DNA from: Clostridia bacterium
Lineage (GTDB): Bacteria; Bacillota; Clostridia; UMGS1883; UMGS1540
DNA length: 64,000 nt
NCBI GenBank assembly: GCA_045590195.1
Contig: JAZNQN010000044.1
Span: 19,186 to 83,185 of the forward strand
Direction: 5' to 3'
Shown here: positions 33,961-51,120 of the stretch, in pieces
Layout: each line of letters begins with the position of its first letter
How positions within the stretch are numbered: position 1 is the stretch's first letter
Program-made: the position numbers and the translations under genes
Notes under the pieces: model-generated
Told to the model about the DNA's origin: nothing
Database searches by the model: none
The model's input: the letters and a program-made list of their open reading frames with translations, nothing else

Positions 33961-33984
33961 AAAAAACCGCTTTCGCGGTTTTTT
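33961..33984. terminator. Terminator closing the mdh-to-transporter operon
   Basis: AAAAAACCGC-TTTC-GCGGTTTTTT, 3 nt after the transporter stop. Confidence 0.85.
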
Positions 33985-33987
33985 TGA

Positions 33988-35214
33988 TTAGAACAATATT
34001 ATCAAAAACTGTGACACAAGCACAACTGCAATAAGTGCAATAGGATAAGTTGCCGCATAAGCTGATGCAACATCTTCAGTTCCTGAAACATTTATAAGTG
34101 TTCCAAGGGCCGGAGTTGATGTCATACCACCGCAAATTGAGCCAAGAGCATTGAGAAGATTAAGCTTTAGTACATATCTTGCAAAAAGATATCCAAGTAT
34201 CATTGGCAAAATTGTCATAACAGCGCCATATACAAAGTAAACCGGCTGGAAATTCTCAACAAATTTTGCTCCGCCTGCAACACCTGCACCGATTAAGAAA
34301 AGCATAAGGCCAAGCTCGCGGAAAACTTTAAGAGTTGGCTGTGGAGGCATAATGCTTACCATACCAACCTTTCCGAAGTGACCAAAAACAAGTGCCGCAA
34401 GAAGGCATCCGCCCGTTGTTGTAAGCGAAAAAGTTGTTCCCGAAAGGCCACTTGAAGAAAGCGGAATTTTAACCATTCCAATAATAATACCAATAACTGC
34501 CGCAATTGCGAAAGCGCATATACCAAATGAATCAAGCTCTAAAAGATTTTTGGAAACCTCTTTTTTCTCAGCTTTTTCAGCGGCAACAAGCTTTTCTCTT
34601 TCCTTTGCCATATCAGCGTTAACAATCTTTGGAACAAGCTGAACAAAAAGCACAACGCCGATTACACCAAAAATATATGCAATACCATTACCAACAGCAA
34701 CTATATCTTCATACATTTCTCCAACAGTTGCTTTTGCGGCTGAAAATGCCGGTGTTGAAGTAAGTGCGCCTGAGAGAAGCCCTGCAACCATAGCAGTAAA
34801 CTTTTCTGTGTTGGTTTCTCCAAGTGCTCTGCCAATGAGAATACAAATTACAGCCGAAATTCCCCCTGCAATTATAATTATAAGGCCAAGCATAACATAA
34901 GATTTAAAATTCTTTTTCATATTGCTGAAAAATTTTGGTCCGGCAATAAATCCAACGGATGTTACAAAAAGAATAAGGCCTATATTTTCAACAATTTTAA
35001 GTGCATCTTTTGTAAAATCGCCAAGCTGTGCCTGCAGAGTTTTATAAAAAAGGCAACCAAAAACCAATGCAGCAATAAATACGCCTGCAGTACCCAGCGA
35101 TACACCTTTTATTGTTATACGGCCGAGAAGGTAGCCTGCTGCTGAAATAATAAGTACTGAAAAAACTAGAAATGTAATTCCTGTTATGGGGATAACTCCA
35201 CCAAATAAACTCAT
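33988..35214 (-). CDS. YidE/YbjL/AAE-type (aspartate:alanine-exchanger family) permease lacking the central TrkA-C domains; candidate dicarboxylate (succinate) exporter
   Basis: Two homologous 5-6-TM halves joined by a short charged linker. N-terminal GYLLGRITIKGVSLGTAGVFIAALVFG is typical of the family. The start is at ATG 35214 (RBS AGAGG), not the ORF-track ATG 35277. Confidence 0.55.
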   Translation of the reverse strand: MSLFGGVIPITGITFLVFSVLIISAAGYLLGRITIKGVSLGTAGVFIAALVFGCLFYKTLQAQLGDFTKDALKIVENIGLILFVTSVGFIAGPKFFSNMKKNFKSYVMLGLIIIIAGGISAVICILIGRALGETNTEKFTAMVAGLLSGALTSTPAFSAAKATVGEMYEDIVAVGNGIAYIFGVIGVVLFVQLVPKIVNADMAKEREKLVAAEKAEKKEVSKNLLELDSFGICAFAIAAVIGIIIGMVKIPLSSSGLSGTTFSLTTTGGCLLAALVFGHFGKVGMVSIMPPQPTLKVFRELGLMLFLIGAGVAGGAKFVENFQPVYFVYGAVMTILPMILGYLFARYVLKLNLLNALGSICGGMTSTPALGTLINVSGTEDVASAYAATYPIALIAVVLVSQFLIILF

Positions 35215-35252
35215 TTTTAAAGACCTCTTTTCAAGTAAAATACACACAAATG

Positions 35253-35282
35253 CTATAATGAATCTGTACCGATTCATTATAG
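35253..35282 (-). promoter_or_regulatory. 12-bp perfect hairpin in the frdA-transporter spacer (possible attenuator or processing site)
   Basis: CTATAATGAATC (35253-35264) / GATTCATTATAG (35271-35282). On the minus-strand RNA it is followed by CAUUUGUGUGUAUUUU. Confidence 0.35.
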
Positions 35283-35307
35283 CATAACTTCAATTATTTT
35301 ACAAGTA

Positions 35308-36915
35308 TCAAATACCACTTTTCTGACCTGTGTAGTTTGGAAGAAGTTTAGGAGAAACCATATCGCCTGCAATGCCCGCCGCTTCTCTTTCAGCTTCAAA
35401 CGCAGCAATATGCTGGAGTGTAAGCTTGCCAACTTTAACATTTTTGCATTTAGCCGCCGCATTTTGACCTGCGTTTCTGCCAAATACAATAATATCTAAA
35501 AGTGAGTTACCCATAAGGCGGTTTCTGCCGTGAATTCCGCCAACAGCTTCGCCTGCAACATAAAGGTTTTCTACATTTGTTGTAGAACCATCAACATTTA
35601 TGTCAAGACCACCATTCTGATAGTGAAGTGTTGGGTAAACCAAAATTGGCTCCTTGCGGATATCAATTCCGTACTGACCAAACATTCTCATCATAGCAGG
35701 AATTCTTTTTTCAATTGTTCCCTCTCCACCTATTTTTTCAATCATAGGAGTATCAAGCCAAACACCAAGGCCGTTTCCTGTTTCAACGCCGTTGCCTCTG
35801 TCATTACATTCTCTGATAATAGAAGCCGCCGCAACGTCACGTGTTTCGAGAGGATGCATAAACACTTCGCCTTTTGAGTTTATAAGTTTGGCACCAAGTG
35901 AACGAACTTTTTCAGTAACAAGTGCACCGAAAATCTGCTGAGGATATGCAGCACCGGTTGGGTGATACTGCAAAGTTTCAGCATAAAGAAGCTTAGCCCC
36001 TACTCTGTAACCTAAAACAAGACCATCGGCAGTTGCGCCATAGTGATTCGATGTTGGGAAACCCTGATAATGCATTCTTCCTGCACCACCTGTTGCAATT
36101 ATGACAGTTTTAGCACGTGCAACCATAAGTTTTTCAGTTTCCATATTAAGGAGCACCGCACCTGCCGCGTTTCCGTTTTCATCAAGAATAATTTCGATTG
36201 CAGCTGTAAAATCAACAACAGGAATCTGTCTGTTTAAAACTTCATCTCGGAGTGTACGCATAATTTCAGCACCTGAATAGTCACGTGCAGCATGCATTCT
36301 CTTTCTTGATGTACCACCACCGTGAGTTGTAATCATTGTGCCATCTTCAGCTTTATCAAACTCAACGCCAAGGTTTGAAAGCCACCAAATAGCCTCAGGT
36401 GCATCGCAAACAAGTTTTGATAAAAGCTCGCGTTTAGCTGCAAAATGTCCGCCGCCAAAAGCATCAACAAAGTGAATTGCAGGGGAATCGTTTGGTTTGT
36501 CAGCCGCCTGAATACCACCTTCTGCCATCATTGTGTTGGCATCGCCAATACGAAGCTTTGTTACAATCATAACATCAGCCCCTGCCTCGTGAGCTTCGAT
36601 TGCGGCAGAAGAACCCGCTCCACCACCGCCAATTACAAGAACATCTACATCGTAGTCGGGTGCATCAAGGTTTACGTCTTCTGCTTTAATACGGCTTTTT
36701 GCCTCTAAAATTTCACAAAGCTCTTTTGGAACACACTGGCCTTTGTTAGGACCTATTTTAAGCTCAGAAAATTCGTCTTTTTTATAATCGGGATGATATG
36801 CCGCAAGCAAATCTTCTTTCTGTTTTGCAGTCATTCTGTCGGGCTCGTATGCAATATTTTTATCTCTCGCCGCCTCAACAGCTTTTATTGATTTTGTTAA
36901 TTCTTCTGAATACAT
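35308..36915 (-). CDS. Fumarate reductase/succinate dehydrogenase flavoprotein-like FAD protein (soluble, non-covalent-FAD type), 535 aa
   Basis: Dinucleotide fold VLVIGGGGAGSSAAIEA. LQYHPTG, TLHYQNGGL and LYVAGEAVGGIHGRNRLMGNSLLDIIVFGRNAG are FrdA/SdhA/NadB family motifs. GDANTMMAEGG replaces the usual SHT..A.GG histidyl-FAD site. Confidence 0.75.
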   Translation of the reverse strand: MYSEELTKSIKAVEAARDKNIAYEPDRMTAKQKEDLLAAYHPDYKKDEFSELKIGPNKGQCVPKELCEILEAKSRIKAEDVNLDAPDYDVDVLVIGGGGAGSSAAIEAHEAGADVMIVTKLRIGDANTMMAEGGIQAADKPNDSPAIHFVDAFGGGHFAAKRELLSKLVCDAPEAIWWLSNLGVEFDKAEDGTMITTHGGGTSRKRMHAARDYSGAEIMRTLRDEVLNRQIPVVDFTAAIEIILDENGNAAGAVLLNMETEKLMVARAKTVIIATGGAGRMHYQGFPTSNHYGATADGLVLGYRVGAKLLYAETLQYHPTGAAYPQQIFGALVTEKVRSLGAKLINSKGEVFMHPLETRDVAAASIIRECNDRGNGVETGNGLGVWLDTPMIEKIGGEGTIEKRIPAMMRMFGQYGIDIRKEPILVYPTLHYQNGGLDINVDGSTTNVENLYVAGEAVGGIHGRNRLMGNSLLDIIVFGRNAGQNAAAKCKNVKVGKLTLQHIAAFEAEREAAGIAGDMVSPKLLPNYTGQKSGI

Positions 36916-36927
36916 ATTGCGCCCTCC

Positions 36928-37602
36928 TTACTTTTCAATATCACGGTTATTATAAAGTTCTTTAATCTCATCAATTGGCTTTTGCATTAGAGCTTCAATA
37001 AGGTCATTGAAAGTACCATCTTTAATTTCTTTAACCCTTTCATCAAGATGGCCACAACCAGGAGCTAAATATTTACCGTTAAGTCTTCTTGCAAGCATTG
37101 CAACCTGTGGATGAGAAATACCTGCAGGACATCTTGAAGAACAAACGCCGCACATTACGCAGTCAAAAGATTCTTCAGCACATTTTTCATACTCAGCACG
37201 CTGTGCATAAGCAATATACTGCATTACATTAAGCTTCTGAGTACAAGCTTTTGTACAAGCATTACAGCCGATGCAGGAATAAATTTCAGGATAAAGCTGC
37301 ATCATAATCTGCTCAGTAGGTTTTACTTTTTCAATATCATAAATTTCTTTAACAAGCGGGAAGAATGGCAATGTAGCAATGTACATCTTATCTTCAACCT
37401 TTGTCTGACATGCAAGACAAGCTTTAAGTTCTCTGTCGCCCTCTATTCTGTAAATTGTGGCACATGCACCGCAAAAACCATTTCGGCATCCGCAACCACG
37501 TTTAAGCTGATAGCCTGCATATTCCATAGCACGCATAATTGTCATGCTGGCAGGTACTTCATATTTTTTACCGAACAAAAATATATTTACCATTTTTTCC
37601 AT
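36928..37602 (-). CDS. FrdB/SdhB-like iron-sulfur subunit (2Fe-2S plus two Cys4 ferredoxin motifs)
   Basis: CGCRNGFCGAC...C, CIGCNACTKAC and CVMCGVCSSRCP. The start is at ATG 37602, preceded by AAAGGAGA. The ORF-track start 37722 overlaps the upstream gene. Confidence 0.75.
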   Translation of the reverse strand: MEKMVNIFLFGKKYEVPASMTIMRAMEYAGYQLKRGCGCRNGFCGACATIYRIEGDRELKACLACQTKVEDKMYIATLPFFPLVKEIYDIEKVKPTEQIMMQLYPEIYSCIGCNACTKACTQKLNVMQYIAYAQRAEYEKCAEESFDCVMCGVCSSRCPAGISHPQVAMLARRLNGKYLAPGCGHLDERVKEIKDGTFNDLIEALMQKPIDEIKELYNNRDIEK

Positions 37603-37621
37603 CAGTAGTATCTCCTTTTTC

Positions 37622-38452
37622 TTAGTATTCGTCAGGCAGCTCGTCAAGCTGGTCACACCTGAAAACCGGGCCGTCTTTACATACATATTTAGAACCAATG
37701 TTGCATCTGCCGCATTTACCAACGCCGCACTTCATTTTAAGTTCCATAGTAGTATAAATCTGAGTTTTTTCAAAGCCAAGTTCCTGAAGGCCCTGAAGGG
37801 TAAATTTAATCATAATAGGCGGACCACAGATTATTGCTGTTTTATTCGTGTCAAACCCGAGTTCCTTTACATAGTTTGGAACAAAGCCAACATGGCCATC
37901 CCATCCATCCTGAGGGTTATCAATTGTAAGATGAACATTTATTCCTTCATCCTTACACCATTCGTCGATAATTTCTTTATAATCAACAAGGTCGTCCATA
38001 CTTCTTGAGCCGTAAACTATATCAATTTTACCATAGCGGTCACGATAGTGACGGCAGTAGTTGATAACTGAACGAAGCGGTGCAAGGCCGATACCGCCGG
38101 CAATAAAGAGCATATCTTTGCCTGCAAATTCGGTGTCAACAGGGAAAGGATTTCCGTAAGGGCCACGAATTGTAATTTGCTGGCCTACTTCTGCCTGATG
38201 AAGCCACTCGGTAACGCAGCCGCACTTTTTAATGGAAAACTCCATATATTCAGTATTTGTTGGAGAAGAAGTAATTGAAAACATAGCCTCTCCCACTCCG
38301 GGAATTGAAAGCATTGCGCATTGACCCGGTTTATGGTCGAATGCTTTTTTGCCGTCGGGTGTTAAAACGCGGAAGGTTTTAACATCGGGGGTATCAATTC
38401 TTACATCACAAATTGTACCAATTTTTGGAATCAATGGATCTTGATTATTCAT
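37622..38452 (-). CDS. FNR-fold FAD/NAD(P)H-binding protein with C-terminal 2Fe-2S (FlxA / AsrB / sulfhydrogenase-gamma-like)
   Basis: FIAGGIGLAPLRS and C-terminal KCGVGKCGRCNIGSKYVC. ATG 38452 lies 8 nt after GGAGG and gives an 8-nt overlap (ATGAATAA) with the upstream gene. Confidence 0.75.
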   Translation of the reverse strand: MNNQDPLIPKIGTICDVRIDTPDVKTFRVLTPDGKKAFDHKPGQCAMLSIPGVGEAMFSITSSPTNTEYMEFSIKKCGCVTEWLHQAEVGQQITIRGPYGNPFPVDTEFAGKDMLFIAGGIGLAPLRSVINYCRHYRDRYGKIDIVYGSRSMDDLVDYKEIIDEWCKDEGINVHLTIDNPQDGWDGHVGFVPNYVKELGFDTNKTAIICGPPIMIKFTLQGLQELGFEKTQIYTTMELKMKCGVGKCGRCNIGSKYVCKDGPVFRCDQLDELPDEY

Positions 38453-39452
38453 TGTCTGCACCTCCAAGTTCTTTCATAACCTTTACAATATTCATTGAAA
38501 TAGGACACTTTGAAAGGCATCTGCCACAACCAACACATCCGAATATTCCATCGTTATTTTCAGGGAAGTATACAAGTTTGTGCATAAATCTCTGACGGAA
38601 ACGTTCTTTCTGAGAATTACGGGAGTTGCCGTGAGCCATTTTAGTAAAATCGGAATACATACACGAATCCCAGCAACGAAAACGTTGAACACCATTTCCT
38701 GTGTTAAAATCTTTAATGTCATAGCACTGACAGGTTGGGCATACAAAAGTACAGGTTCCACAGCCAAGGCAGCTTTCAGAAAGTTCTTCCCATTTTGGGC
38801 TTTCAAAATACTTTTCTGTTTTACCTCCACCAAAAGCATCAGTTTTTAAATTTTTAAGTGGAAGTTTTTCAATGTAAGTGCGAATTTTTGCTTTTTCTTC
38901 ATCTGCGGCTACAGTATCGCACTCCTGGCCAATCCCTTCAAGAAGAGCAGTTCCTTTTTCAGTTTTTGCGTCGATATAAACCACATCATCAACAATTGTG
39001 CATTCAACATCTCCACCGGGTGCAGAAGCATCAATACCAAAAGCAGCACAAAAACAAGTTTCTTCAGGGCGCGAGCAAGCAACAGTTATTATAGTTGCTC
39101 CCTCTCTTCTTTTCTGATAGAATGTGTCAACAGGTTCTGAGAGAAAAACTCTGTCAAGAATTTCAAAGCTTTTAAGATCGCAGGCGCGAACACCAAAAAT
39201 CGCAAAATTACCAATATCTTCACGAATATCGATAACTTCTATATTTTTGCCTTCTGTTTTAAAGTGCATCATATTTTCAACCTGAGGAAAGAAAAAGTCT
39301 TTCGCGCTCCTGGTTGTGTTAAGTTTTTTGGAATATTCTATTCCTTCTTCCCATTTTTTAAATGAAGCACCTTCTTTTCCGTCAGCCGGGAGATAAAGTG
39401 GCATTTTATCGGCAACGGCCTTGAAAAAATCGCAAATGTTAATTTTACGCAT
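38445..39452 (-). CDS. Poly-FeS protein (FlxB / AsrA / sulfhydrogenase-beta-like)
   Basis: CLGCGTCTFVCPTCQCYD, CVGCGRCLSKCP and ETCFCAAFG. The start is ATG 39452 (9 nt after GGAG) or ATG 39461. Confidence 0.7.
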   Translation of the reverse strand: MRKINICDFFKAVADKMPLYLPADGKEGASFKKWEEGIEYSKKLNTTRSAKDFFFPQVENMMHFKTEGKNIEVIDIREDIGNFAIFGVRACDLKSFEILDRVFLSEPVDTFYQKRREGATIITVACSRPEETCFCAAFGIDASAPGGDVECTIVDDVVYIDAKTEKGTALLEGIGQECDTVAADEEKAKIRTYIEKLPLKNLKTDAFGGGKTEKYFESPKWEELSESCLGCGTCTFVCPTCQCYDIKDFNTGNGVQRFRCWDSCMYSDFTKMAHGNSRNSQKERFRQRFMHKLVYFPENNDGIFGCVGCGRCLSKCPISMNIVKVMKELGGADNE

Positions 39453-40437
39453 TTTCGCCATCTCCTTTCTCCACAGCCTCGGAAGGCTCTAAATCTTCTG
39501 TAGTGTAGTTTACAAGCGGAGCACGAAGGCCTACTTCTTCCCCTGCCTGATACTCACCATAGAAAGAGTTTATATCTTTTATAAACTTACGGTTTAAAAG
39601 ATGAAGTGGAATGTTTTGCGGACAAACTCTTGAACATTCGCCGCAATCTGTACATCTTCCGGCAACGTGAAAAGCTCTTATAATGTGAAACATTTTTTCT
39701 TCAAAGCTATCTGCTGCGGCTTTGTTTTCCACGCCTGATTTAGGATTGCCAAATACGCACTGTTCACAAGTACAAGCGGGACAGACATCGCGGCAGGCAT
39801 TACATCTTATACATCTTGAAAGCTCGCCCTGCCAGAAAGCAAATCTTTCATCGGCAGACATTTTTTCAAGGCGCTTAACTTCATCAAAGCGGTTAGAATC
39901 AATAATTTCGCCTTCGTCGCCAATAAGTTCATCGTATGCAACATGCTTGCGGCTTTTGCAAGAGATGCATCTTTCAGCTAAAACATCAGCTTTATTAAAT
40001 ACTTTTTCATCGCCATAAATTGATTTTACCAAAATTTCATCGCCGTTTTCCAAAATTTCAGAAACAGCAGAAATTTCAGCTTTAATTTTTGAAACATCAG
40101 TCATTCCATCGCAGGGAATTCCAACGGCATAAACTTTTTCGCGGTCTATGCGGTGTTCAGTTAAAAGCTGATTAAAACTGTATGTGTCACATGGTTTCAA
40201 GAAAACCAGCACTTTTCCATCTTTCTGGCATTCTTTTACTAGATATTTTGAAAAGTTTGCACCACAAAAAGCATTGTAAACAAAATCTTTTTTAAGAGAT
40301 TCGGCATCTTTAAACACACCGGGGGTTACATCGTATGAAAACTCGCCCTCTTTCCAGCCTAAAACTCTGTCAACCTTTCCGCTTTCAAGGAGGTTTAATG
40401 CTTTATCTATAAGAATATCACGATTTATTGTTTGCAT
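39445..40437 (-). CDS. FeS protein, FrhB-like N-terminus plus 2x[4Fe-4S] (FlxC-like)
   Basis: CIRCNACRDVCPACTC and CTDCGECSRVCP. It overlaps mvhD by 13 nt. Confidence 0.65.
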   Translation of the reverse strand: MQTINRDILIDKALNLLESGKVDRVLGWKEGEFSYDVTPGVFKDAESLKKDFVYNAFCGANFSKYLVKECQKDGKVLVFLKPCDTYSFNQLLTEHRIDREKVYAVGIPCDGMTDVSKIKAEISAVSEILENGDEILVKSIYGDEKVFNKADVLAERCISCKSRKHVAYDELIGDEGEIIDSNRFDEVKRLEKMSADERFAFWQGELSRCIRCNACRDVCPACTCEQCVFGNPKSGVENKAAADSFEEKMFHIIRAFHVAGRCTDCGECSRVCPQNIPLHLLNRKFIKDINSFYGEYQAGEEVGLRAPLVNYTTEDLEPSEAVEKGDGENA

Positions 40438-40859
40438 CTTAAATCCTCCAATCTTTTGTTTTCGCCAAGAGCAGCAACTGCTTCGGCAAATTCATTCATT
40501 GTTTGCGCAAATTTTGCGCCTTCAGCCGCAGAAACCCATTCAACACGGGTTCTTTCTTTTTCAATACCGAGAAAATCGAGCATTGAGAAAAGAAGCGACA
40601 TTCTTCTTCTTGTATAGTAGTTACCAGAAGTATAATGGCAGTCGCCAGGGTGGCAACCACAGATTATAACCCCGTCTGCTCCACGCTGAAATGCTCTTAA
40701 AATAAACATTGGGTTTACCCTACAAGAGCATGGAACACGAATTATTTTAACTTCGGCAGGGTAACTGAGTCGGTTATTACCTGCAAGGTCGGCACCGGCA
40801 TAAGAACACCAGTTACAGCAAAATGCCACTATTAAAGGTTTTTTCTCTTCTATTTGCAT
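40425..40859 (-). CDS. mvhD: MvhD/FlxD-like methyl-viologen-reducing-hydrogenase delta-subunit family protein
   Basis: IVAFCCNWCSYAGADLAG, RVPCSCRV and ICGCHPGDCHY. Confidence 0.85.
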   Translation of the reverse strand: MQIEEKKPLIVAFCCNWCSYAGADLAGNNRLSYPAEVKIIRVPCSCRVNPMFILRAFQRGADGVIICGCHPGDCHYTSGNYYTRRRMSLLFSMLDFLGIEKERTRVEWVSAAEGAKFAQTMNEFAEAVAALGENKRLEDLRCKQ

Positions 40860-42844
40860 ATTGCATCCACCTCCGCTAAAATTTGTGCATTTTTAAAGCC
40901 TTTTAAATCCATTGCACCTGATGGACAGGCAACTGTACAAGCACCGCAGCCCTGACAAACAGCTTCATTAACCTGAGCTACGCGGCGCATTTTTGTTGTT
41001 CTGTTTGGCATACGGAACTCTTTAACTACATAAGTTATTGCACCATATGGGCAAACTCTTTCGCAACTACTGCATCCGTTACACATCATTTCGTCTGATG
41101 CGGCAATACAAGGATTACCAAGAAGTTTATCTTTGCATAAAAGGCCGATAACCTTTGAAGCCGCCGCTCCCGCCTGGGAAACAGTTTCAGGAATATCTTT
41201 CGGGCCTTGACAAGCACCTGACAAAAATACGCCTGCGGTTGGGCTTTCAACCGGACGAAGCTTTGGATGAGCCTCGGTAAAGAAATCGTTTGTATCCATA
41301 CTTGCAGTGAGCATTGTTGCAAGAGGACGAGCTGATTTATCAGGCTCGATTGCGGCTGCTAAAACAACCAAATCTGCATCAATGTTAATCTGTTTATTTG
41401 AAATTAAATCGCTTGCACGCACTTTAAGCTTATCGCCTTCAGGCATAATTTTGCCAACCATACCTTTAATGTAGTGAACACCAAATTCCTCGGTTGCTCT
41501 TCTGTAAAATTCGTCAAAGTTTTTACCGGGAGTTCTGACATCGATGTAGAATACTGTTACGTCAGTATCCGGATATTTATCACGAGTGAGCATTGCGTGT
41601 TTCGCTGTGTACATACAACAAATTTTAGAACAGTATTCCTTACCTTTTTCATTGCATGCATCGCATCTTGAACCTACGCACTGAACGAAAACGATTTTTT
41701 CAGGATGTTTTCCGTCTGAAGGGCGTAAGAGTTTACCTGCTGTTGGGCCTGCCGCATTGGTAAGACGCTCAAATTCGAGAGAAGTTATAACATCTTTCGA
41801 CTGGTTATAAGCATACTCATCAAATTTTTCCATACTGATAGGATTAAAGCCTGTTGCAACAACAATTGCACCATATTTTTCTTCTATAATTTCATCCTGT
41901 TGCTTATAATTGATAGCTCCTGCTGCACAAACCTTTTCACAAAGGCCGCACTTGCCATTTTTAAGCATATTACAGTAATCAGCATCAATTGTTGCAACCT
42001 TTGGAACTGCCTGAGCAAAAGGAATATAAACCGCTCTTCTCATATCCATTCCAAGGTTAAATTCATTAGGAACTTTCTTTTGAGGACATTTTTCTGTACA
42101 AAGGCCGCAACCTGTACATTTAGTTTCGTCAACAAATCTTGCTTTTTTCTTAATTTTTACATCAAAATTTCCTACAAAACCGGAAACTGCTTCAACTTCG
42201 CTATAGGAAAAAATTCTTATTTTATCGTTCTGTGCAACATCAACCATTTTTGGAGTTAAAATACAAGCCGCACAGTCAAGTGTTGGGAAGGTTTTATCAA
42301 TCTGCGCCATCTTGCCGCCGATTGTAGGATTTTTTTCAACTATATCTACCGGGAAACCTGCATCGGCAATATCAAGAGCTGTTTGAATACCTGCAATACC
42401 GCCACCGATAACCAAAGCACGCTTTGTAACAGGGCTTTCGCCAGGTGTAAGCGGAGCGTTAAGGTTAACCTTTGCAACAGCCGCTTTGCCCAAAATAATT
42501 GCTTTTTCAGTTCCTGTAGGGATATCTTTATGAACCCATGAGCACTGCTCACGAATGTTTGCAATTTCAACCATATAAGGGTTAATCCCTGCACTTTCAG
42601 CGGTTTTTCTGAAAGTATTCTCGTGCATACGGGGTGAACAGGAACAAATAACTATACCGGTAAGATTATGCTCTTTAATAGCATCTTTAATCATTTCCTG
42701 TCCCGCTTGGGAACACATATACTGATAGTTAGTGGAGAAAACAACACCAGGCTCTTTTTTCAAGGCTTCGCTAACTGCTTCAACATCAACAGTTGCCGCA
42801 ATATTGCTTCCGCACCAACATACGAATACACCAATTCTTTGCAT
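40850..42844 (-). CDS. hdrA: HdrA-like FAD/FeS heterodisulfide-reductase subunit A (full-length, bifurcation-type architecture)
   Basis: N-terminal Cys-rich domain (VCWCGSN, ICSCSPR). FAD fold ALVIGGGIAGIQTALD. Inserted ferredoxin CTGCGLCTEKCP/CGLCEKVC. VQCVGSR. C-terminal CNGCSSCERVCP and CQGCGACTVACP. Confidence 0.85.
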   Translation of the reverse strand: MQRIGVFVCWCGSNIAATVDVEAVSEALKKEPGVVFSTNYQYMCSQAGQEMIKDAIKEHNLTGIVICSCSPRMHENTFRKTAESAGINPYMVEIANIREQCSWVHKDIPTGTEKAIILGKAAVAKVNLNAPLTPGESPVTKRALVIGGGIAGIQTALDIADAGFPVDIVEKNPTIGGKMAQIDKTFPTLDCAACILTPKMVDVAQNDKIRIFSYSEVEAVSGFVGNFDVKIKKKARFVDETKCTGCGLCTEKCPQKKVPNEFNLGMDMRRAVYIPFAQAVPKVATIDADYCNMLKNGKCGLCEKVCAAGAINYKQQDEIIEEKYGAIVVATGFNPISMEKFDEYAYNQSKDVITSLEFERLTNAAGPTAGKLLRPSDGKHPEKIVFVQCVGSRCDACNEKGKEYCSKICCMYTAKHAMLTRDKYPDTDVTVFYIDVRTPGKNFDEFYRRATEEFGVHYIKGMVGKIMPEGDKLKVRASDLISNKQINIDADLVVLAAAIEPDKSARPLATMLTASMDTNDFFTEAHPKLRPVESPTAGVFLSGACQGPKDIPETVSQAGAAASKVIGLLCKDKLLGNPCIAASDEMMCNGCSSCERVCPYGAITYVVKEFRMPNRTTKMRRVAQVNEAVCQGCGACTVACPSGAMDLKGFKNAQILAEVDAICK

Positions 42845-42858
42845 TTGCTTTCTCCTTT

Positions 42859-43245
42859 CTATTTACTATATTTTCTCATTGCACTTACAATTGCCTGTTG
42901 TGGCAACTGTTCATCTAAAAGTGAAGGTATTGCATCAGCTTTAAGATGATTTTCGCCCTGCTGACGTACTTTTAAAAGCCTTACTGCTTCAATAAGTTTT
43001 GCCGGCTCTACGCCTCTGGGACAACGCTCAACACAGGCAAAACAAGAAAGACATTTGAAAATTGAAGGCGACTCCATAAGTTTATCAACATCACCGTTTT
43101 CAACCATATAAACAAACTGATGAGGATGATATTCCATTTCATCATAAGAAGGACATGTACCTGTGCATTTGCCGCATTTCATACATTTTTTAGGATTAAC
43201 ACCGCTGATGCGCAAAATTTCGTTTGAAAGCTCTGTTTTATTCAT
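42859..43245 (-). CDS. hdrC: HdrC-like 2x[4Fe-4S] subunit
   Basis: CMKCGKCTGTCP and CLSCFACVERCP. ATG 43245 lies 9 nt after AAGGAGG and gives an 8-nt ATGAATAA overlap with hdrB. Confidence 0.8.
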   Translation of the reverse strand: MNKTELSNEILRISGVNPKKCMKCGKCTGTCPSYDEMEYHPHQFVYMVENGDVDKLMESPSIFKCLSCFACVERCPRGVEPAKLIEAVRLLKVRQQGENHLKADAIPSLLDEQLPQQAIVSAMRKYSK

Positions 43246-44032
43246 TTGCACAGCCCTCCTTTACGCCAAGCGCCTGTGCTAAAAGCTCGGTAAAATATTT
43301 AATTTCTATACCGTCGGCGTGTTTTTCAAGATTATATTTGCAAAGTGGGCAAGCTGTTACTATCATATCTGCACCCATTTTTTTGGCACTTTCCAAAATA
43401 GCAATACTCTTCTTCTTTGCACTTTCACTATCTTCAAGAGCTATATATCCGCCGCAGCATTCGTTTCTGTATGGCGAAACTATTGCTTCCGCACCCATAG
43501 CTTTTACAAGATTTTCAAGAATCTGCGGATTTTCGCTGTCGTCCATCTGCATAACTTTACCAGGACGAAGCAAAAGACAACCATAATATGGAGCAATTTT
43601 TTTACCCTCAAGAGGATTTGTAACTTTTTTGGCAATTTCTTCAAAGCCAATTTCATCTCTCAAAAGCTCAAGATAATGAATAACCTCTGCATCTCCCTCA
43701 TAAGGCGTATCAAGATTCATATAGTTATTTGCTTTAAAAGCAAAATCGCTATCGTTATTAAACTGATAATTTGTTTGTTTTATTACATTATGGCAGGCAG
43801 CACAAACTGTTACAAGCTTCTGACCTTTTTCTTTTGCCTCTACAAGGGCACGAATTGAGGAAAGCTTTGTTGCAATTTCATCCTTCGAAGTTGTAAAAAC
43901 TCCGCCGCAGCACTGCCAGTTATTTATTTCTTCCAGATTAACCCCTAATGCCGCCGCACTTTCTCTTGCGTATTTATCAAGTTCTTTTGCTTTGGTTTTA
44001 AGAGTACAACCGGGATAATATGAAAAATTCAT
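43238..44032 (-). CDS. hdrB: HdrB-like subunit with two CCG domains
   Basis: YYPGC...NWQCCGG...CAACHN and YYGC...ECCGGY...CPLCKYN. The start is at ATG 44032 (MNFSYYPGC) after AGGGAG. Confidence 0.85.
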   Translation of the reverse strand: MNFSYYPGCTLKTKAKELDKYARESAAALGVNLEEINNWQCCGGVFTTSKDEIATKLSSIRALVEAKEKGQKLVTVCAACHNVIKQTNYQFNNDSDFAFKANNYMNLDTPYEGDAEVIHYLELLRDEIGFEEIAKKVTNPLEGKKIAPYYGCLLLRPGKVMQMDDSENPQILENLVKAMGAEAIVSPYRNECCGGYIALEDSESAKKKSIAILESAKKMGADMIVTACPLCKYNLEKHADGIEIKYFTELLAQALGVKEGCANE

Positions 44033-44054
44033 ACCTAAACTCCCTTCTGCAAAA

Positions 44055-45431
44055 TTATACCATCTGTTCAGGATGGAACACTTCGTCAAATTTTTCTTCG
44101 GTTAAAAAGCCAAGCTCGATACAAGCCTCTTTAAGAGAAATATTGTCTTTATAAGCTTTTTTAGCTGTTTTAGCCGCATTTTCATAACCGATATAAGGGT
44201 TAAGCGCAGTAACAAGCATAAGTGAATTATGAAGATTATGATGCATTTTTTCGCGGTTTGCCTTAATGCCTACTGCACAGTTTTTGTTAAATGAAACAAT
44301 GGCTTCTGCCATAAGACGTGCCGACTGCAAAAAGTTATATATGCATACAGGCATAAATACATTAAGTTCAAAGTTACCCTGTGAAGCTGCCATAGAAACA
44401 GCAACATCATTACCCATTACCTGAACGGCAACCATTGTTACCGCTTCACACTGAGTTGGGTTAACTTTACCCGGCATAATTGATGAGCCCGGTTCATTTT
44501 CAGGGATGAAAATTTCTCCAAGGCCATCACGAGGACCGCTTGCAAGCCAACGGATATCGTTTGCTATTTTCATCATATCGCAGGCAAGGGCTTTAATTGC
44601 ACCATGTGCAAAAACAAGCTCGTCTTTTGAAGTTAATGCGTGAAATTTATTCTCAGCAGTTACAAATGGTTTTCCTGTTATTTTCGAAACCTCTGCCGCA
44701 ACGCCTTCTGAAAAACCTTTTGGAGCATTAAGTCCTGTTCCAACTGCAGTTCCGCCAAGTGCAAGTTCACAAAGCGGCTTTACGCTTTGCTTCAAAAGCT
44801 CTACATCTTTCTGGAGGCTTGATCTCCAGCCGCTGATTTCCTGGCTGAATTTTATTGGAGTTGCATCCTGAAGATGTGTTCTTCCGCTTTTTACTATATC
44901 TTCGTTTTCTTTTTCAAGGCGTGAAAAAGTATCGATAAGAGTTTGGACAGCAGGAATAAGTTTATCTTCTATCATCAAAACTGCGGAAATATGCATAGCT
45001 GTAGGGAAAGTATCGTTTGACGACTGGCTCATATTAACATCATCATTAGGATGAAGAATACTTTTGCCCGCAATCTGATTTCCACGGTTTGCAATTACTT
45101 CGTTTGCATTCATATTCGACTGAGTGCCGGAGCCCGTTTGCCATACAACAAGAGGAAAATGGCTATTAAGCTTGCCGCTTATAACCTCATCGCAAGCACT
45201 GGAAATTGCCGAAAGTTTTTCTTCAGTCATTTTTTCGGGTTTCAAAGCGTGATTTGCGATTGCTGCAGCTTTTTTCAAAATGCCGAATGCATGTGTAATT
45301 TCACGTGGCATTGTTTCAATATTTACACCGATTTCAAAATTTTCGTGACTTCTCTGGGTTTGAGCCGCCCACAACCTGTCGGCAGGAACTTTAACCTCTC
45401 CCATCGAGTCGTGTTCAATACGATAATCCAT
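44055..45431 (-). CDS. fumC: Class II fumarate hydratase
   Basis: [15 protein letters not shown] signature. N-terminal [21 protein letters not shown] is FumC-like rather than AspA-like. Confidence 0.85.
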
Positions 45432-45449
45432 AACTACTCCTCTTTTCTT

Positions 45450-46406
45450 TTATATATCCATTTGTTTTATAAGTGATTTCAAAGTATCTGCGCTATGGTG
45501 AAGTGCGCGAACCTCTTCATCATTAAGAGGCAAAAGCATTTTTCCACAAGCGCCCTTGTTGTCAACAACATTGAGAAGGCTCAAAGAAACATCATCTATT
45601 CCATATTCGCCGTGAAGCATTGTTGAAACAGTCATAGTAGTATTTATACCGCCGAGAATACATTTACAAATGTGGCAAACAGATACTGAAACAGCGTAGA
45701 ATGTTGCACCTTTTCTTTCAATAACTCTTCCGCCTGATTTGCGAACATAATCCTCAACTTCATCAAAGTCTATACTTGGCAGCTTAAAGCCTTTCTGAGA
45801 AAAATCGCCTACTACCGAAGACTGACCTTCCTGAATAGGAATGTTAGATACATTTGCAATTGACCACGGAACAAAAGAAGAATCACCATGTTCACCAAGA
45901 ACATAGGCGTGAACATTTTTCTGGTTGATTGAGTAATACTCCGAAAGCCTTGCACGAAGGCGGGCGGTATCAAGAATAGTTCCCGAACCTATAATCTGAT
46001 TTTCAGGAAGCCCTGAACATTTAAAGAATGTGTAAGTTAAAATGTCAACAGGATTGCTCACTATAAGGTAAACTGCATTTGGTGCATAGCGAACAATTTC
46101 AGGAATAATCTGTTTAGTAATATTAACATTTGTCTGAGCAAGGTCAAGCCTTGACTGACCTGGCTTTCTTGCAATACCTGAAGTTACTATTACTATATTT
46201 GAGCCTACTGCATCCTGATATGAACCTGCGTAAACTGTTGCTGATGAGCAAAACGGTGTTCCCTGGCGAATGTCAAGTGCTTCGCCAAGTGCTTTTTCCT
46301 GATTAATATCAATAAGCACAATTTCAGATGCCAGCCCCATAACAGTTAAAGTATACGCAATTGTTGAGCCAACACTACCTGTTCCTATTATTGTAATTTT
46401 GTTCAT
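45450..46406 (-). CDS. mdh: LDH-like malate dehydrogenase
   Basis: NKITIIGTGSVGST Rossmann motif and catalytic LGEHGDS. The substrate loop GIARKPGQSRLDL has Arg at the LDH Gln102-equivalent position. Confidence 0.7.
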   Translation of the reverse strand: MNKITIIGTGSVGSTIAYTLTVMGLASEIVLIDINQEKALGEALDIRQGTPFCSSATVYAGSYQDAVGSNIVIVTSGIARKPGQSRLDLAQTNVNITKQIIPEIVRYAPNAVYLIVSNPVDILTYTFFKCSGLPENQIIGSGTILDTARLRARLSEYYSINQKNVHAYVLGEHGDSSFVPWSIANVSNIPIQEGQSSVVGDFSQKGFKLPSIDFDEVEDYVRKSGGRVIERKGATFYAVSVSVCHICKCILGGINTTMTVSTMLHGEYGIDDVSLSLLNVVDNKGACGKMLLPLNDEEVRALHHSADTLKSLIKQMDI

Positions 46407-46447
46407 GGTATTCTTCCTTTCGTGTATGAAATATCGTTACAACCTCA

Positions 46448-46487
46448 ATTGTAGCACACATTTAAATTAAAATCAATAGAAATTGAT
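46448..46487 (-). promoter_or_regulatory. Candidate operon promoter with overlapping 6-4-6 palindrome
   Basis: On the minus strand, TTGATT (46476-46471), a 17-nt spacer and TACAAT (46453-46448). The palindrome ATCAAT-AGAA-ATTGAT at 46472-46487 covers the -35. Confidence 0.45.
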
Positions 46488-47980: not shown

Positions 47981-47990
47981 AATATTCACC

Positions 47991-51095: not shown

Positions 51096-51120
51096 AAATA
51101 AATCATTCCTTTTTGATTTT

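Follow-up and report, generated by a model that had tools for sequence, protein, structure and literature searches.

A run of genes on a contig from a gut or rumen Clostridia-type bacterium joins enzymes of fumarate formation to an FrdAB-like pair and to Hdr-, MvhD- and Flx-like proteins, and it raises the question of whether fumarate is reduced here by a soluble, quinone-independent enzyme that draws on NAD(P)H and also reduces ferredoxin. The reading that we favor, with a probability of roughly 0.6, is that the operon encodes a reductive pathway that starts at oxaloacetate and ends with the export of succinate, in which such a fumarate reductase would be served by an NAD(P)H-fed Flx/Hdr module that bifurcates electrons to ferredoxin.

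Organization of the operon

The twelve genes form a co-directional minus-strand run (33988-46406) in the ORF list of the window, that is, the whole 64,000-nt stretch of DNA analysed, as the preliminary description had stated (Table 1). ATG codons preceded by a GGAG-type ribosome-binding site were taken as the best-supported starts, and with these the previously reported spacings were reproduced exactly: gaps of 18 nt (mdh/fumC), 22 nt (fumC/hdrB), 14 nt (hdrC/hdrA), 19 nt (flxA/frdB) and 12 nt (frdB/frdA), and overlaps of 8 nt (hdrB/hdrC), 10 nt (hdrA/mvhD), 13 nt (mvhD/flxC), 8 nt (flxC/flxB) and 8 nt (flxB/flxA). Spacing is tight at 11/11 junctions and the run is bounded by its own terminator; the tightly packed 12-gene operon is real. 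The string ATGAATAA, however, has six occurrences in the window, where 5.7 would be expected by chance, and its presence at both hdrB/hdrC and flxB/flxA, which had been described as a shared coupling string, therefore has no meaning.

Table 1. Features of the operon, in window coordinates, with the basis of each assignment.
Feature	Position	Strand	Basis
Promoter-like site (candidate) 5' of mdh, TTGATT-17 nt-TACAAT, TG-extended	46448..46476	-	pattern scan, 9/12 matches
LDH-like malate dehydrogenase (mdh), 318 aa	45450..46406	-	Pfam Ldh_1_N, Ldh_1_C
Class II fumarate hydratase (fumC), 458 aa	44055..45431	-	TIGR00979, Pfam Lyase_1 + FumaraseC_C
HdrB-like, two CCG domains, 264 aa	43238..44032	-	Pfam, two CCG
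HdrC-like, two [4Fe-4S] motifs, 128 aa	42859..43245	-	Pfam Fer4_17 + Fer4_8
Full-length HdrA, FAD and FeS cysteine motifs, 664 aa	40850..42844	-	5odc_A alignment, NF040770
MvhD/FlxD-like [2Fe-2S] connector, 144 aa	40425..40859	-	Pfam FlpD
FlxC-like iron-sulfur protein, 330 aa	39445..40437	-	Pfam Fer4_8 + Fer4_9
FlxB-like iron-sulfur protein, AsrA/sulfhydrogenase beta type, 335 aa	38445..39452	-	Pfam Fer4_22
FlxA-like FNR-fold subunit, FAD + NAD(P)H + 2Fe-2S sites, 276 aa	37622..38452	-	Pfam
FrdB-like iron-sulfur subunit (Fer2+Fer4), 224 aa	36928..37602	-	alignment with E. coli FrdB, SdhB
FrdA-like flavoprotein, catalytic subunit, 535 aa	35308..36915	-	Pfam FAD_binding_2, E. coli FrdA alignment
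Structured frdA-permease spacer, hairpin + promoter-like site	35250..35304	-	folding + pattern scan
AspT/YidE/YbjL (AAEx) family permease, about 408 aa	33988..35214	-	Pfam, TIGR01625
Intrinsic terminator AAAAAAACCGC-GAAA-GCGGTTTTTTT	33961..33984	-	direct sequence reading

The operon had been described as having one promoter and one terminator. The terminator, which starts 4 nt past the permease stop codon, was confirmed by reading the sequence; the pattern scan had missed it. The upstream hydrogenase gene ends in a hairpin and T-run; a 140-nt gap follows, and in it lies the promoter-like site ahead of mdh, which is only a candidate because such matches are frequent in this AT-rich region (54 found versus 38 expected). 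The frdA-permease spacer, which measures 93 nt given the permease start at ATG 35214, does hold the structure that had been thought possible: a hairpin with a 15-bp stem (35285-35250; -26.4 kcal/mol, z = -5.65, with 0/200 shuffles equally stable), overlapped by a promoter-like TTGTAA-17-TATAAT at 35304-35276. One promoter and one terminator is therefore too simple a picture. The spacer sequence is not conserved among relatives; different hairpins occur at this junction in relatives L010, L029 and L037, and probably also in L018.

The Hdr, MvhD and Flx proteins

Profile searches with Pfam and NCBIfam upheld the Flx/Hdr, FrdAB-like, fumarase and permease assignments. The HdrB-like protein aligned end-to-end with methanogen HdrB (8rvv_B, 5odc_B; E 1e-29), and the cysteines of both CCG motifs were aligned, confirming that the two motifs are intact; its best NCBIfam scores, 148 bits for SdhE of methylmenaquinol:fumarate reductase and 135 bits for HdrB, did not reach the cut-offs, nor did the 70 bits of the HdrC-like protein against TIGR03290 (HdrC). 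HdrA is full-length, as claimed, since residues 3-661 aligned with residues 5-648 of M. wolfeii HdrA 5odc_A (E 4e-208) with every cysteine motif aligned; it also scored 789 bits against NF040770 (HdrA2). The aligned M. wolfeii protein is the structurally characterised bifurcating HdrA, and the match counts for a capacity to bifurcate.

The MvhD-like protein matched FlpD across the full profile (188 bits; Pfam). Among solved structures, the FlxC-like protein was closest to FdhB of Fdh-Hdr complexes (9t1s_M, 7bkb_E, 8rvu_E; E about 1e-23), the FlxB-like protein (Fer4_22, 107 bits in Pfam; NCBIfam matches ShyB, HydB and AsrA) to sulfhydrogenase I beta (9nez_B, E 9e-43), and the FlxA-like protein (FAD_binding_6, NAD_binding_1 and DHODB_Fe-S_bind in Pfam; NCBIfam matches AsrB and HydG) to sulfhydrogenase I gamma (9nez_C, E 5e-56). 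The predicted electron donor of the FlxA-like subunit is NAD(P)H, a designation that covers both NADH and NADPH because the sequence does not separate them. Reduction of ferredoxin by bifurcation is plausible for this set of proteins. A point against it is that, to our knowledge, bifurcation by Flx/Hdr is itself only a proposal, made for Desulfovibrio, with no demonstration on purified enzyme.

An FrdAB-like pair with no anchor gene

As stated in the preliminary description, no FrdC/FrdD-type membrane anchor gene is present in the 12-gene operon. Alignment of the FrdB-like subunit with E. coli FrdB and SdhB located its 2Fe-2S cysteines (C39, C44, C47, C65), a CxxCxxCxxxC motif at residues 110-120 and a shortened inter-motif segment; in the second motif, CVMCGVCSSRCP, four cysteines stand where E. 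coli FrdB has three (3Fe-4S motif). One [2Fe-2S] and two [4Fe-4S] clusters are accordingly predicted.

FAD_binding_2 was the sole substantial Pfam match of the FrdA-like protein, which has none of the C-terminal domain seen in FrdA/SdhA/NadB and is extended by 85 residues at its N terminus. An AF2 model (pLDDT 80.6) had FrdA 1kf6_A as its top Foldseek match (E 2e-28). Compared with E. coli FrdA, H318, T334, E335 and R338 correspond to H232, T244, E245 and R248, and R359, H431 and R466 to R287, H355 and R390; by alignment, the fumarate-site residues are all retained. The covalent-FAD histidine (H44 in E. coli FrdA) is replaced by N127, and asparagine is found at this position in every aligned member. 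Replacement of H44 in E. coli FrdA abolishes succinate oxidation and leaves fumarate reduction intact. Together, the asparagine, the missing C-terminal domain of FrdA, the four-cysteine FrdB motif and the missing anchor gene fit a putative quinone-independent reductase, and the same features argue against succinate oxidation.

These features bear on the reverse reaction, in which a confurcating succinate dehydrogenase would oxidise succinate and reduced ferredoxin and reduce NAD+. This had been considered equally possible; flavin-based bifurcating enzymes can in principle run in either direction, and succinate oxidation by syntrophs needs such help. We now find it extremely doubtful, given the asparagine, a gene set that runs from oxaloacetate through malate and fumarate to succinate with a permease of an exporter family, and succinate production by Pseudoclostridium thermosuccinogenes (PMC7282089), whose operon is described with the same gene order.

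The TfrB model NF004898 was matched by three operon proteins, FrdB-like (positions 18-98), HdrC-like (123-220) and HdrB-like (260-485); there is therefore a characterised fumarate reductase in which FrdB-type and CCG-type modules are parts of one protein. A thiol-mediated two-step system, in which thiols would be re-oxidised by fumarate as in methanogen thiol:fumarate reductase, is suggested by the intact CCG motifs, which form the disulfide-reducing site of methanogen Hdr, and by TfrA as the best NCBIfam match of the FrdA-like protein (339 bits, cut-off 718); this version has been put forward for tubeworm symbionts, and PMC7282089 uses the wording 'ferredoxin (and thiols)'. However, CCG domains occur in a single operon protein and are absent from the FrdB-like subunit, so there is no separate thiol-oxidising site, and no thiol-carrier candidate (DsrC-like, CoM/CoB biosynthesis) is found in the operon or conserved next door. 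CCG proteins can also serve simply as partners of the iron-sulfur subunits of Frd/Sdh, as does SdhE in type E enzymes (the best NCBIfam match of the HdrB-like protein), and we consider the thiol route distinctly improbable.

A proposed path from oxaloacetate to succinate

The first gene had been called MDH-type. NCBIfam favors L-LDH, as the product passes the L-LDH cut-offs and falls short of the one for MDH (269 vs 283); however, its motif GIARKPGQSR places arginine at the Gln102 specificity position, where L-LDH 4m1q has glutamine, and this arginine is kept in all operon homologues. The fumarase scored 715 bits against TIGR00979 (cut-off 665; NCBIfam). The permease has two Asp-Al_Ex domains (202 bits; Pfam) and matches TIGR01625; its AAEx family has a succinate-exporting member (PMC9527358), and the permease is a candidate succinate exporter.

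In the pathway that we favor, the LDH-like enzyme would reduce oxaloacetate to malate, the fumarase would convert malate to fumarate, the FrdA-like flavoprotein, which has no covalent-FAD histidine, would reduce fumarate to succinate, and the permease would export it. NAD(P)H would enter at the FNR-fold FlxA-like subunit, and electrons would reach the FAD of HdrA by way of two iron-sulfur proteins, FlxB-like and FlxC-like, and the MvhD/FlxD connector. From there, the high-potential electron would travel through HdrC, the CCG-domain clusters of HdrB and the FrdB-like clusters to FrdA, and the low-potential electron would reach ferredoxin via the ferredoxin domains that HdrA carries, for a net reaction of 2 NADH + fumarate + 2 oxidised one-electron ferredoxin equivalents to 2 NAD+ + succinate + 2 reduced equivalents. 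We infer complex formation, direct transfer from HdrB to FrdB, NADH over NADPH as donor, and bifurcation to ferredoxin; succinate formation is probably coupled to ferredoxin reduction. Reduced ferredoxin would serve NfnAB and the hydrogenases, whose genes lie immediately upstream, or Rnf, should the genome encode it. The neighborhood holds [FeFe] hydrogenases, HydAB-like pairs and NfnAB, all ferredoxin- or NADH-linked enzymes, and was counted in favor of the bifurcating reading.

Conservation and gene neighbors

The FrdA-like protein was found in at least 593 species genomes, and synteny was sampled in related Clostridia genomes, at the 54 best loci that had 9.5 kb or more of upstream flank. 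The genes hdrB-hdrC-hdrA-mvhD-flxC-flxB-flxA-frdB, which with frdA make up a nine-gene core, are colinear in 53/54 loci; homologues of mdh and of the class II fumarase are present at 49/54 and 51/54, and a permease homologue lies 3' of frdA at about two thirds. The core recurs in Fusobacteriota, Halanaerobiales and Natranaerobius, with all nine genes present in Ilyobacter polytropus, Clostridium estertheticum, Acetoanaerobium pronyense, a Halanaerobiales MAG and Cetobacterium. In Natranaerobius thermophilus, frdBA stands ahead of hdrB, so the association of frdBA with hdr/flx outlasts rearrangement. The co-occurrence of frdAB with hdrABC/mvhD/flx, which had been suggested as a check, extends to further phyla.

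A class II fumarase adjoins the core in this window and, on Pfam matches that by themselves do not tell fumarase from aspartase, in N. thermophilus and A. pronyense, the non-homologous class I fumarase alpha/beta in C. estertheticum and the Halanaerobiales MAG, and aspartate ammonia-lyase in I. polytropus. Transporters beside the cores are of the DcuA/B/C, DASS, CitMHS, TRAP or AAEx types, and a sensor kinase with sCache_3 domains resembles CitA/DcuS-type carboxylate sensors. The partner genes are always fumarate-related and, with the conserved core, support fumarate as the likely substrate and a functional link between Frd and Flx/Hdr. Synteny, fumarase displacement, site residues and the FrdA-type fold together sustain the earlier proposal of an anchor-less FrdAB that would act on fumarate and be fed by Flx/Hdr with NAD(P)H input.

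Two homologous pairs stand apart from hdr/flx, one in a Congzhengia MAG (n=1), where only a CitMHS transporter lies alongside, and one in a Bacillota MAG (n=1) among UbiX/UbiD and CoA-transferase genes; frdBA can therefore be supplied with electrons by different partners, and its substrates may differ too. The latter pair, the atypical FrdA domain architecture and the sub-cut-off scores of the NCBIfam Frd, Sdh, Tfr and NadB models would suit an FrdAB-like enzyme acting on L-aspartate (NadB-like), another enoate or a substituted succinate, with only an indirect meaning for the adjacent fumarase. However, the dicarboxylate-binding and proton-transfer residues of FrdA are all invariant, the NadB Glu121 position is glycine, NadB ranks only 30th in the structural search, and three unrelated kinds of fumarate-forming enzyme recur with C4-dicarboxylate transporters beside the cluster, making another substrate very improbable.

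In Cupriavidus and Pseudoroseomonas, frdBA adjoins a single NuoF-like NADH module; that anaerobes instead pair it with seven Flx/Hdr subunits suggests an added function. These proteobacterial pairs could also point to a non-bifurcating NADH:fumarate oxidoreductase, in which the same eleven proteins, as one complex or a chain, would pass all NADH electrons to fumarate and HdrA would be an electron-transfer flavoprotein that does not reduce ferredoxin. The sequence holds no proof of bifurcation, and a soluble five-subunit NADH-dependent fumarate reductase has been characterised in Hydrogenobacter thermophilus (Miura 2008, as cited in PMC13147460). Nonetheless, we judge this unlikely, because seven extra subunits, among them a full HdrA of the bifurcation type with every cluster motif, are kept across phyla, whereas a single NuoF-like subunit serves frdBA elsewhere. 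NADH:fumarate, moreover, yields about -58 kJ/mol (Table 1 of PMC13147460), enough to drive ferredoxin reduction, and with a non-bifurcating enzyme fermenters would waste this energy. Headspace H2 was earlier reported to nearly abolish succinate formation by P. thermosuccinogenes, which the authors of PMC7282089 relate to a ferredoxin-reducing fumarate reductase.

Comparison with known systems

The composition of the operon is less novel than had been suggested, as the same cluster and the bifurcation hypothesis were proposed for P. thermosuccinogenes (2019 preprint; 2020 paper, PMC7282089) and, in 2019, for tubeworm symbionts (Ca. Endoriftia relatives). In a 2026 review the Frd-Flx/Hdr complex is still put forward as a suggestion, and no purification or biochemical data on this or a homologous complex were found in the literature. 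The operon is therefore another case of an already proposed system whose enzyme is uncharacterised, and the hypothesis is not new. Nor is the gene order a special mirror of that in Desulfovibrio, since the tubeworm-symbiont cluster is also listed as hdrA-flxD-flxC-flxB-flxA. The P. thermosuccinogenes operon is expressed about fourfold higher at low CO2 (PMC7282089).

Operon layout and sequence signals

The preliminary description of this locus had placed twelve consecutive ORFs on the minus strand between one promoter-like site and one terminator, and the run is present as described. With the start codon of each gene taken as the one that follows a GGAG-type ribosome-binding site, the spacings were identical to those first reported (gaps of 18, 22, 14, 19 and 12 nt, overlaps of 8, 10, 13, 8 and 8 nt, and a frdA-permease spacer of 93 nt). 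All twelve ORFs were assigned (mdh-fumC-hdrB-hdrC-hdrA-mvhD-flxC-flxB-flxA-frdB-frdA-permease), and the permease, a member of the AspT/YidE/YbjL (AAEx) transporter family, is the sole membrane protein among them. Pattern scans returned 54 promoter-like sites against 38 expected and 15 terminator-like sites against 14 expected. Because promoter-like matches are frequent in this AT-rich DNA, the operon promoter is treated as a candidate only, and, the counts being near chance, the scans were given little weight and internal terminator-like matches were set aside. The [FeFe]-hydrogenase gene upstream of the operon has its own hairpin and T-run at its end. The string ATGAATAA, proposed earlier as a shared coupling signal, occurs in the window at chance frequency and was dropped. 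An Rfam search found no riboswitch or leader in or ahead of the operon, the sole matches in the window being a tRNA and a 6S RNA elsewhere.

The frdA-permease spacer had been singled out as able to hold a structure, and a hairpin was indeed found there (15-bp stem, -26.4 kcal/mol, z = -5.65). In relatives the spacer at this junction varies from 12 to 218 nt and its sequence is not conserved; yet different hairpins occur at the same junction in several relatives, including the two closest loci. Possible roles for the hairpin are those of an operator, of a processing or stabilising element, or of a partial terminator that sets the level of the permease.

Coordinates of the features discussed, in the window and in four other loci that carry FrdA-like homologues
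Sequence	Feature	Position	Strand	Remark
Window	Tyrosine recombinase/integrase gene	462-1889	+	Left window edge; adjoins the tRNA gene
Window	tRNA gene	2082-2155	-	
Window	6S RNA gene	22133-22328	+	RF00013, 55.8 bits (gathering score 46.4); beside tyrS
Window	Enolase gene	32658-33899	-	Immediately downstream of the operon terminator, same strand
Window	Run of twelve ORFs with flanking signals	33961-46487	-	
Window	Terminator AAAAAAACCGC-GAAA-GCGGTTTTTTT	33961-33984	-	Read from the sequence
Window	frdA-permease spacer hairpin and promoter-like TTGTAA-17-TATAAT	35250-35304		Hairpin overlaps the -10 element
Window	frdB	36928-37602	-	
Window	hdrB	43238-44032	-	
Window	mdh	45450-46406	-	
Window	Promoter-like TTGATT-17-TACAAT, TG-extended	46476-46448	-	Pattern scan; downstream of the [FeFe]-hydrogenase gene end
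Window	15-kb run of ferredoxin/NADH redox genes	46547-61611	-	Adjoins the operon upstream: monomeric [FeFe] hydrogenase (group B1), SpoIIE/PP2C phosphatase, PAS-containing sensory hydrogenase-like protein, HydA-like + NuoF-like pair, NfnB, NfnA, second HydA + HydB pair
L060, Congzhengia MAG	frdBA	8079-11605		Beside a CitMHS transporter only
L092, Bacillota MAG	frdBA and neighbouring genes	9217-18834		With UbiX, two UbiD, two family III CoA-transferases and succinyl-CoA-synthetase-like genes
L002, Cupriavidus metallidurans megaplasmid	frdB-frdA, then NuoF-like FMN/4Fe-4S NADH module	9261-14301		Na+:dicarboxylate symporter after the NuoF-like module
L003, Pseudoroseomonas cervicalis plasmid	frdB-frdA, then NuoF-like FMN/4Fe-4S NADH module	9249-12852		

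The surroundings of the operon fit a ferredoxin/NADH economy. In the upstream redox run, the second HydA scores 933 bits with the model for NADH-dependent group A6 hydrogenases (cut-off 765), and in five related loci (L039, L041, L050, L052 and L064) homologues of the B1 hydrogenase follow the operon within a few kb. On the other side, enolase yields PEP, the precursor of oxaloacetate, which the operon would reduce; no matching enolase was found in the fetched flanks of 80 related loci. The recombinase and tRNA genes at the left edge may mark the border of an integrated element.

Identities of the gene products

Identities were assigned from Pfam and NCBIfam profiles and from comparison with solved structures. 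The product of the first gene passes the NCBIfam cut-offs for L-lactate dehydrogenase and scores 269 with the malate dehydrogenase model (cut-off 283). It carries Arg at the Gln102 specificity position, as do all of its operon homologues, and by the classical specificity rule we take this residue to denote malate dehydrogenase; the first gene would thus encode an LDH-like malate dehydrogenase. The models score it as L-lactate dehydrogenase; malate dehydrogenase is the likely identity given the Arg and the operon context, with systematic misannotation in related genomes as the likely consequence. The second product is a class II fumarase (715 bits, cut-off 665).

The HdrB-like protein can be aligned over its full length with methanogen HdrB and has both cysteine (CCG) motifs intact, and the HdrC-like protein is a dicluster protein with two 4Fe-4S motifs. 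HdrA is full-length (664 aa) and matches HdrA of the solved M. wolfeii Mvh-Hdr complex (5odc_A) at E 4e-208 with every cysteine motif aligned, and MvhD scores 188 bits with Pfam FlpD. The nearest solved relatives of the FlxC-like protein are FdhB subunits of Fdh-Hdr complexes, and those of the FlxB-like and FlxA-like proteins belong to the NAD(P)H-linked module of Pyrococcus sulfhydrogenase I (its beta and gamma subunits, respectively); the PDB entries closest to the Flx subunits are all of these two kinds, none being nearer. The FlxA-like protein has an FNR fold (FAD_binding_6, NAD_binding_1 and DHODB_Fe-S_bind in Pfam) and matches sulfhydrogenase gamma (9nez_C) at E 5e-56. The permease has two Asp-Al_Ex domains (PF06826, 202 bits over two stretches), and we infer that its substrate is succinate; the AAEx family includes a succinate exporter, according to PMC9527358.

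FrdA-like and FrdB-like subunits

The FrdA-like protein was aligned with E. coli FrdA, SdhA and NadB, with E. coli FrdA numbering as reference. The fumarate-site residues are kept: H318, T334, E335, R338, R359, H431 and R466 correspond to H232, T244, E245, R248, R287, H355 and R390, and all are invariant over six aligned sequences except T334, which is matched in FrdA, SdhA and NadB. Asn127 stands at the position of the covalent-FAD His44 and is invariant in a 44-sequence family alignment. The entire C-terminal domain is absent (no Pfam Succ_DH_flav_C match), the protein ending about 35 residues past the FAD domain, and there is an N-terminal extension of about 85-87 residues. Searched alone, the 87-residue extension gave 414 matches, of which the best 150 are nearly all short fragments aligned from their own N-terminus; the extension is family-specific, and that search gave no functional clue.

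An AF2 model of the FrdA-like protein (pLDDT 80.6, pTM 0.85) has E. coli FrdA (1kf6_A) as its best structural match in Foldseek, at E 2e-28. None of the NCBIfam models for Frd, Sdh, Tfr or NadB reaches its cut-off, TfrA scoring highest. The preliminary description had named a grouping of this protein with L-aspartate oxidases as an outcome that would count against it. Profile score, residues and structure point away from them: TIGR00551 scores 265 against a cut-off of 453, Gly stands at the position of NadB Glu121, the C-terminal domain is missing and NadB ranks 30th in Foldseek, and the NadB reading was rejected.

In the FrdB-like protein, the 2Fe-2S and first 4Fe-4S ligands of E. coli FrdB are kept, the third motif (CVMCGVCSSRCP) has four cysteines as against three in the E. 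coli 3Fe-4S motif, and the long insert between the motifs of E. coli FrdB is absent. No membrane anchor gene was found beside frdAB among the twelve assigned operon ORFs. Together, the FrdAB features and the missing anchor fit a soluble, quinone-independent enzyme predicted to be biased to fumarate reduction. The reverse reaction, a confurcating oxidation of succinate, had been regarded as equally possible; since Asn replaces the covalent-FAD histidine and the pathway context is contrary, this direction is most improbable and was set aside.

Conservation of the cluster across genomes

A pattern scan with one genome per species recovered FrdA-type proteins from at least 593 species-level genomes. 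The 80 best loci come almost entirely from MAGs of gut, rumen or faecal Clostridia, including Acutalibacteraceae, Oscillospiraceae, Ruminococcus, Congzhengia and Faecousia, together with the isolate Yeguia hominis; the closest to the window are L010 and L037, both from Oscillospiraceae/Clostridia MAGs. A look-up by exact sequence found no recorded entry identical to the window FrdA. Gene order was counted in the 54 of these 80 loci with at least 9.5 kb of upstream sequence. The order hdrB-hdrC-hdrA-mvhD-flxC-flxB-flxA-frdB is colinear with the window in 53/54, fumC is present in 51/54 and mdh in 49/54, and in the loci with shorter sequence no gene is missing that the available length could hold. 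Median identity to the window over the 80 loci (L004-L083), among which family labels differ, is 83-89% for FrdA, FrdB, FlxA, HdrA, MvhD and FumC and only 62-64% for FlxB, HdrB and the permease. This unevenness could mean that the catalytic and bifurcating subunits are strongly constrained, or that the cluster has spread recently among gut Clostridia.

In more distant carriers the nine-gene core (hdrBCA-mvhD-flxCBA-frdBA) is retained in other settings. It is found in Acetoanaerobium pronyense; in Ilyobacter polytropus, with aspartate ammonia-lyase upstream and aspartate aminotransferase and a TRAP transporter downstream; in Clostridium estertheticum, with class I fumarase alpha/beta and a DASS transporter; in Cetobacterium, with DcuC; and in a Halanaerobiales MAG, with a two-component system (sensor like DcuS/CitA), DASS, class I fumarase and a 2HCT transporter. 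In Natranaerobius thermophilus, frdBA stands ahead of hdrB, and Dcu and CitMHS transporters flank the cluster. Co-occurrence of this FrdAB clade with hdrABC, mvhD and flx genes, proposed as a check at the outset, is seen both in the 53 colinear loci and in the distant carriers. The association outlasts a change of gene order, and in some carriers the class II fumarase gives way to a non-homologous one; of the evidence available, these two findings argue most strongly for fumarate as the substrate and for joint action of Frd with Flx/Hdr. The view that the FrdAB-like pair acts on a different substrate is very unlikely, given that the fumarate-site residues are invariant and fumarate-related neighbours recur.

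FrdBA also occurs apart from Flx/Hdr. The Bacillota MAG locus, which has a divergently oriented sigma-54 activator nearby, hints at a different substrate or direction. The frdB-frdA products on the Cupriavidus and Pseudoroseomonas replicons are 43-47% identical to those of the window, share the N-terminal extension and have the same Asn at the FAD-histidine position. We know of no characterisation of this apparent three-subunit, soluble, NADH-linked relative in Proteobacteria. The CitMHS-only, UbiX/UbiD and NuoF contexts indicate that FrdBA is a portable module with alternative electron-input partners. A non-bifurcating NADH:fumarate reductase could also be imagined for the window operon; this is unlikely, because it leaves unexplained why a seven-subunit Flx/Hdr set is kept in anaerobes when a single NuoF-like subunit partners frdBA elsewhere.

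Proposed reaction and energetics

The electron route judged most likely from the predicted subunits runs from FlxA to the FAD of HdrA and splits there towards fumarate and ferredoxin. NAD(P)H would enter at FlxA and its electrons would reach the HdrA flavin by way of FlxB, FlxC and MvhD. The high-potential branch would lead through HdrC, HdrB, FrdB and FrdA to fumarate and the low-potential branch from HdrA to ferredoxin, which once reduced would serve a hydrogenase or Rnf. Direct wiring of HdrB to FrdB is supported because methanogen TfrB is a natural fusion of FrdB-type and CCG-type parts, because NCBIfam ranks SdhE, the CCG subunit found in type E fumarate reductases, first for the HdrB-like protein, because the operon encodes one CCG protein only, and because no thiol-carrier gene is conserved nearby. 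Matches to portions of the NCBIfam TfrB model were found for the window FrdB, HdrC and HdrB alike. CoM and CoB thiols are not expected in these bacteria. A thiol-mediated scheme as in Tfr is improbable, as both the second CCG site and a thiol carrier are missing.

The furthest-reaching version of the bifurcating reading is given a probability of about one half. It holds that the operon encodes the first flavin-based bifurcating enzyme with fumarate as high-potential acceptor, in which the HdrB CCG clusters would act as a relay only and no disulfide would be reduced, and that this enzyme would be widespread and would provide the energetic equivalent of fumarate respiration for quinone-free fermenters. 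Its carriers would be gut and rumen Clostridia of the Oscillospirales type, Fusobacteriota and halophilic anaerobes. By our own arithmetic with E0' values of +33 mV and -320 mV, about -30 to -50 kJ per reaction is left after two electrons have been lifted to ferredoxin at -420 to -500 mV; PMC13147460 gives about -58 kJ/mol for NADH:fumarate.

If the enzyme is bifurcating, HdrA-based bifurcation would gain a new class of acceptor (the C=C bond of a free dicarboxylate), and HdrB-type CCG clusters would be shown able to feed another redox enzyme directly. Energy conservation would be explained in succinate-forming Clostridia that have no quinone-linked fumarate reductase, and the succinate, H2 and NADH balances of gut and rumen communities would be linked.

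Comparison with known systems

The complexes of methanogens (MvhAGD-HdrABC and Fdh-Hdr; 5odc, 7bkb and 8rvu) are homologous end to end with the window HdrA, HdrB, HdrC and MvhD, all cluster ligands being kept, and the window FlxC resembles FdhB. In contrast to these complexes, the donor would be NAD(P)H via FlxABC rather than H2 or formate, and the acceptor would be fumarate via FrdAB rather than CoM-S-S-CoB. FlxABCD-HdrABC of Desulfovibrio vulgaris (Ramos et al. 2015) has the same seven subunit types and is likewise proposed to bifurcate electrons from NADH; however, the DsrC disulfide is proposed as its high-potential acceptor and its genes lie with an alcohol dehydrogenase gene, whereas in the window FrdAB takes the acceptor position and the gene order is reversed. 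Neither adh nor dsrC was found within or next to the window operon, nor in related loci. TfrAB of Methanothermobacter (Heim et al. 1998), whose TfrB joins an FrdB-like and a CCG part, is soluble and quinone-independent, as the proposed window enzyme would be. The window proteins differ from it in scoring far below the models (339 against 718 for TfrA; 40 for FrdB-like and 45 for HdrB-like against 385 for TfrB) and in having frdB and hdrB as separate genes, with no FrdB-CCG fusion. E. coli FrdABCD (1kf6), the best structural match, shares the catalytic residues and the 2Fe-2S and first 4Fe-4S ligands; unlike it, the window set has no FrdC or FrdD, its flavoprotein lacks both the covalent-FAD histidine and the C-terminal domain, and it has a four-cysteine motif in place of that for 3Fe-4S in FrdB and an extra N-terminal domain in FrdA.

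To our knowledge, no bacterial NADH:fumarate reductase that is soluble and multi-subunit has been purified other than that of Hydrogenobacter thermophilus. PMC13147460 describes the Hydrogenobacter enzyme as a five-subunit NADH-dependent enzyme, irreversible, with an A subunit homologous to FrdA (Miura et al. 2008). Its genes lie at dispersed loci, no Flx/Hdr set is reported, and it is not known to reduce ferredoxin.

Closer precedents exist for the cluster as a whole. For tubeworm symbionts and Thioflavicoccus, Rubin-Blum et al. (2019; PMC6315080) proposed a bifurcating complex for frdBA/tfrAB genes interleaved with hdr, kor and flx genes, which a 2026 review repeats as a suggestion supported by co-expression (PMC13147460). 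That cluster (frdBA/tfrAB-hdrCB-korDABC-hdrA-flxDCBA) likewise has an AB-only fumarate reductase by Flx/Hdr; it is interleaved with 2-oxoglutarate:ferredoxin oxidoreductase and belongs to the reductive TCA cycle of autotrophs, whereas the window operon represents a fermentative branch with malate dehydrogenase, fumarase and exporter. A 2024 preprint reports an HdrA-Sdh/Frd association in Ruminococcus champanellensis.

The nearest published case is the 'succinate operon' of Pseudoclostridium thermosuccinogenes (genes CDQ83_RS03315-65; Koendjbiharie & van Kranenburg, 2019 preprint; PMC7282089), which, by its published description, comprises genes for a fumarate hydratase, seven Flx-Hdr subunits, two fumarate reductase subunits and a putative succinate transporter in the same order, fumC-hdrBCA-mvhD-flxCBA-frdBA-permease, and carries the same NADH/ferredoxin hypothesis. 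PMC7282089 gives an approximately fourfold higher expression of the operon at low CO2, and its authors find an earlier report, of succinate formation all but lost with H2 in the headspace, in keeping with a ferredoxin-reducing fumarate reductase. The window operon differs in starting with the additional LDH-like malate dehydrogenase gene, and its source is an uncultured, mesophilic relative among gut or rumen Clostridia rather than a thermophile.

The interpretation in the preliminary description is largely backed by the comparative evidence, with reservations as to the even weight it gave to the reverse direction, the gene order, which is not distinctive, and the idea, which is not new: the order hdrA-flxD-flxC-flxB-flxA is also that of the tubeworm-symbiont cluster, and the hypothesis has been published, with the cluster, for P. 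thermosuccinogenes and the tubeworm symbionts. No purification, assay or structure of a Frd-Flx/Hdr complex was found in the literature searched. The window locus is thus a further case, with an added malate dehydrogenase gene, of a published but biochemically uncharacterised cluster type, and the practical value of the window is modest because the hypothesis is already in print. Among gut and rumen Clostridia, the cluster has a much wider distribution than one would gather from the published cases. What the present analysis adds to them is the breadth and rigidity of the synteny, the displacement between class I and class II fumarases, the rearranged order in Natranaerobius, the NuoF-type alternative partner in Proteobacteria, and the cofactor-motif differences that set these proteins apart from classical FrdAB.
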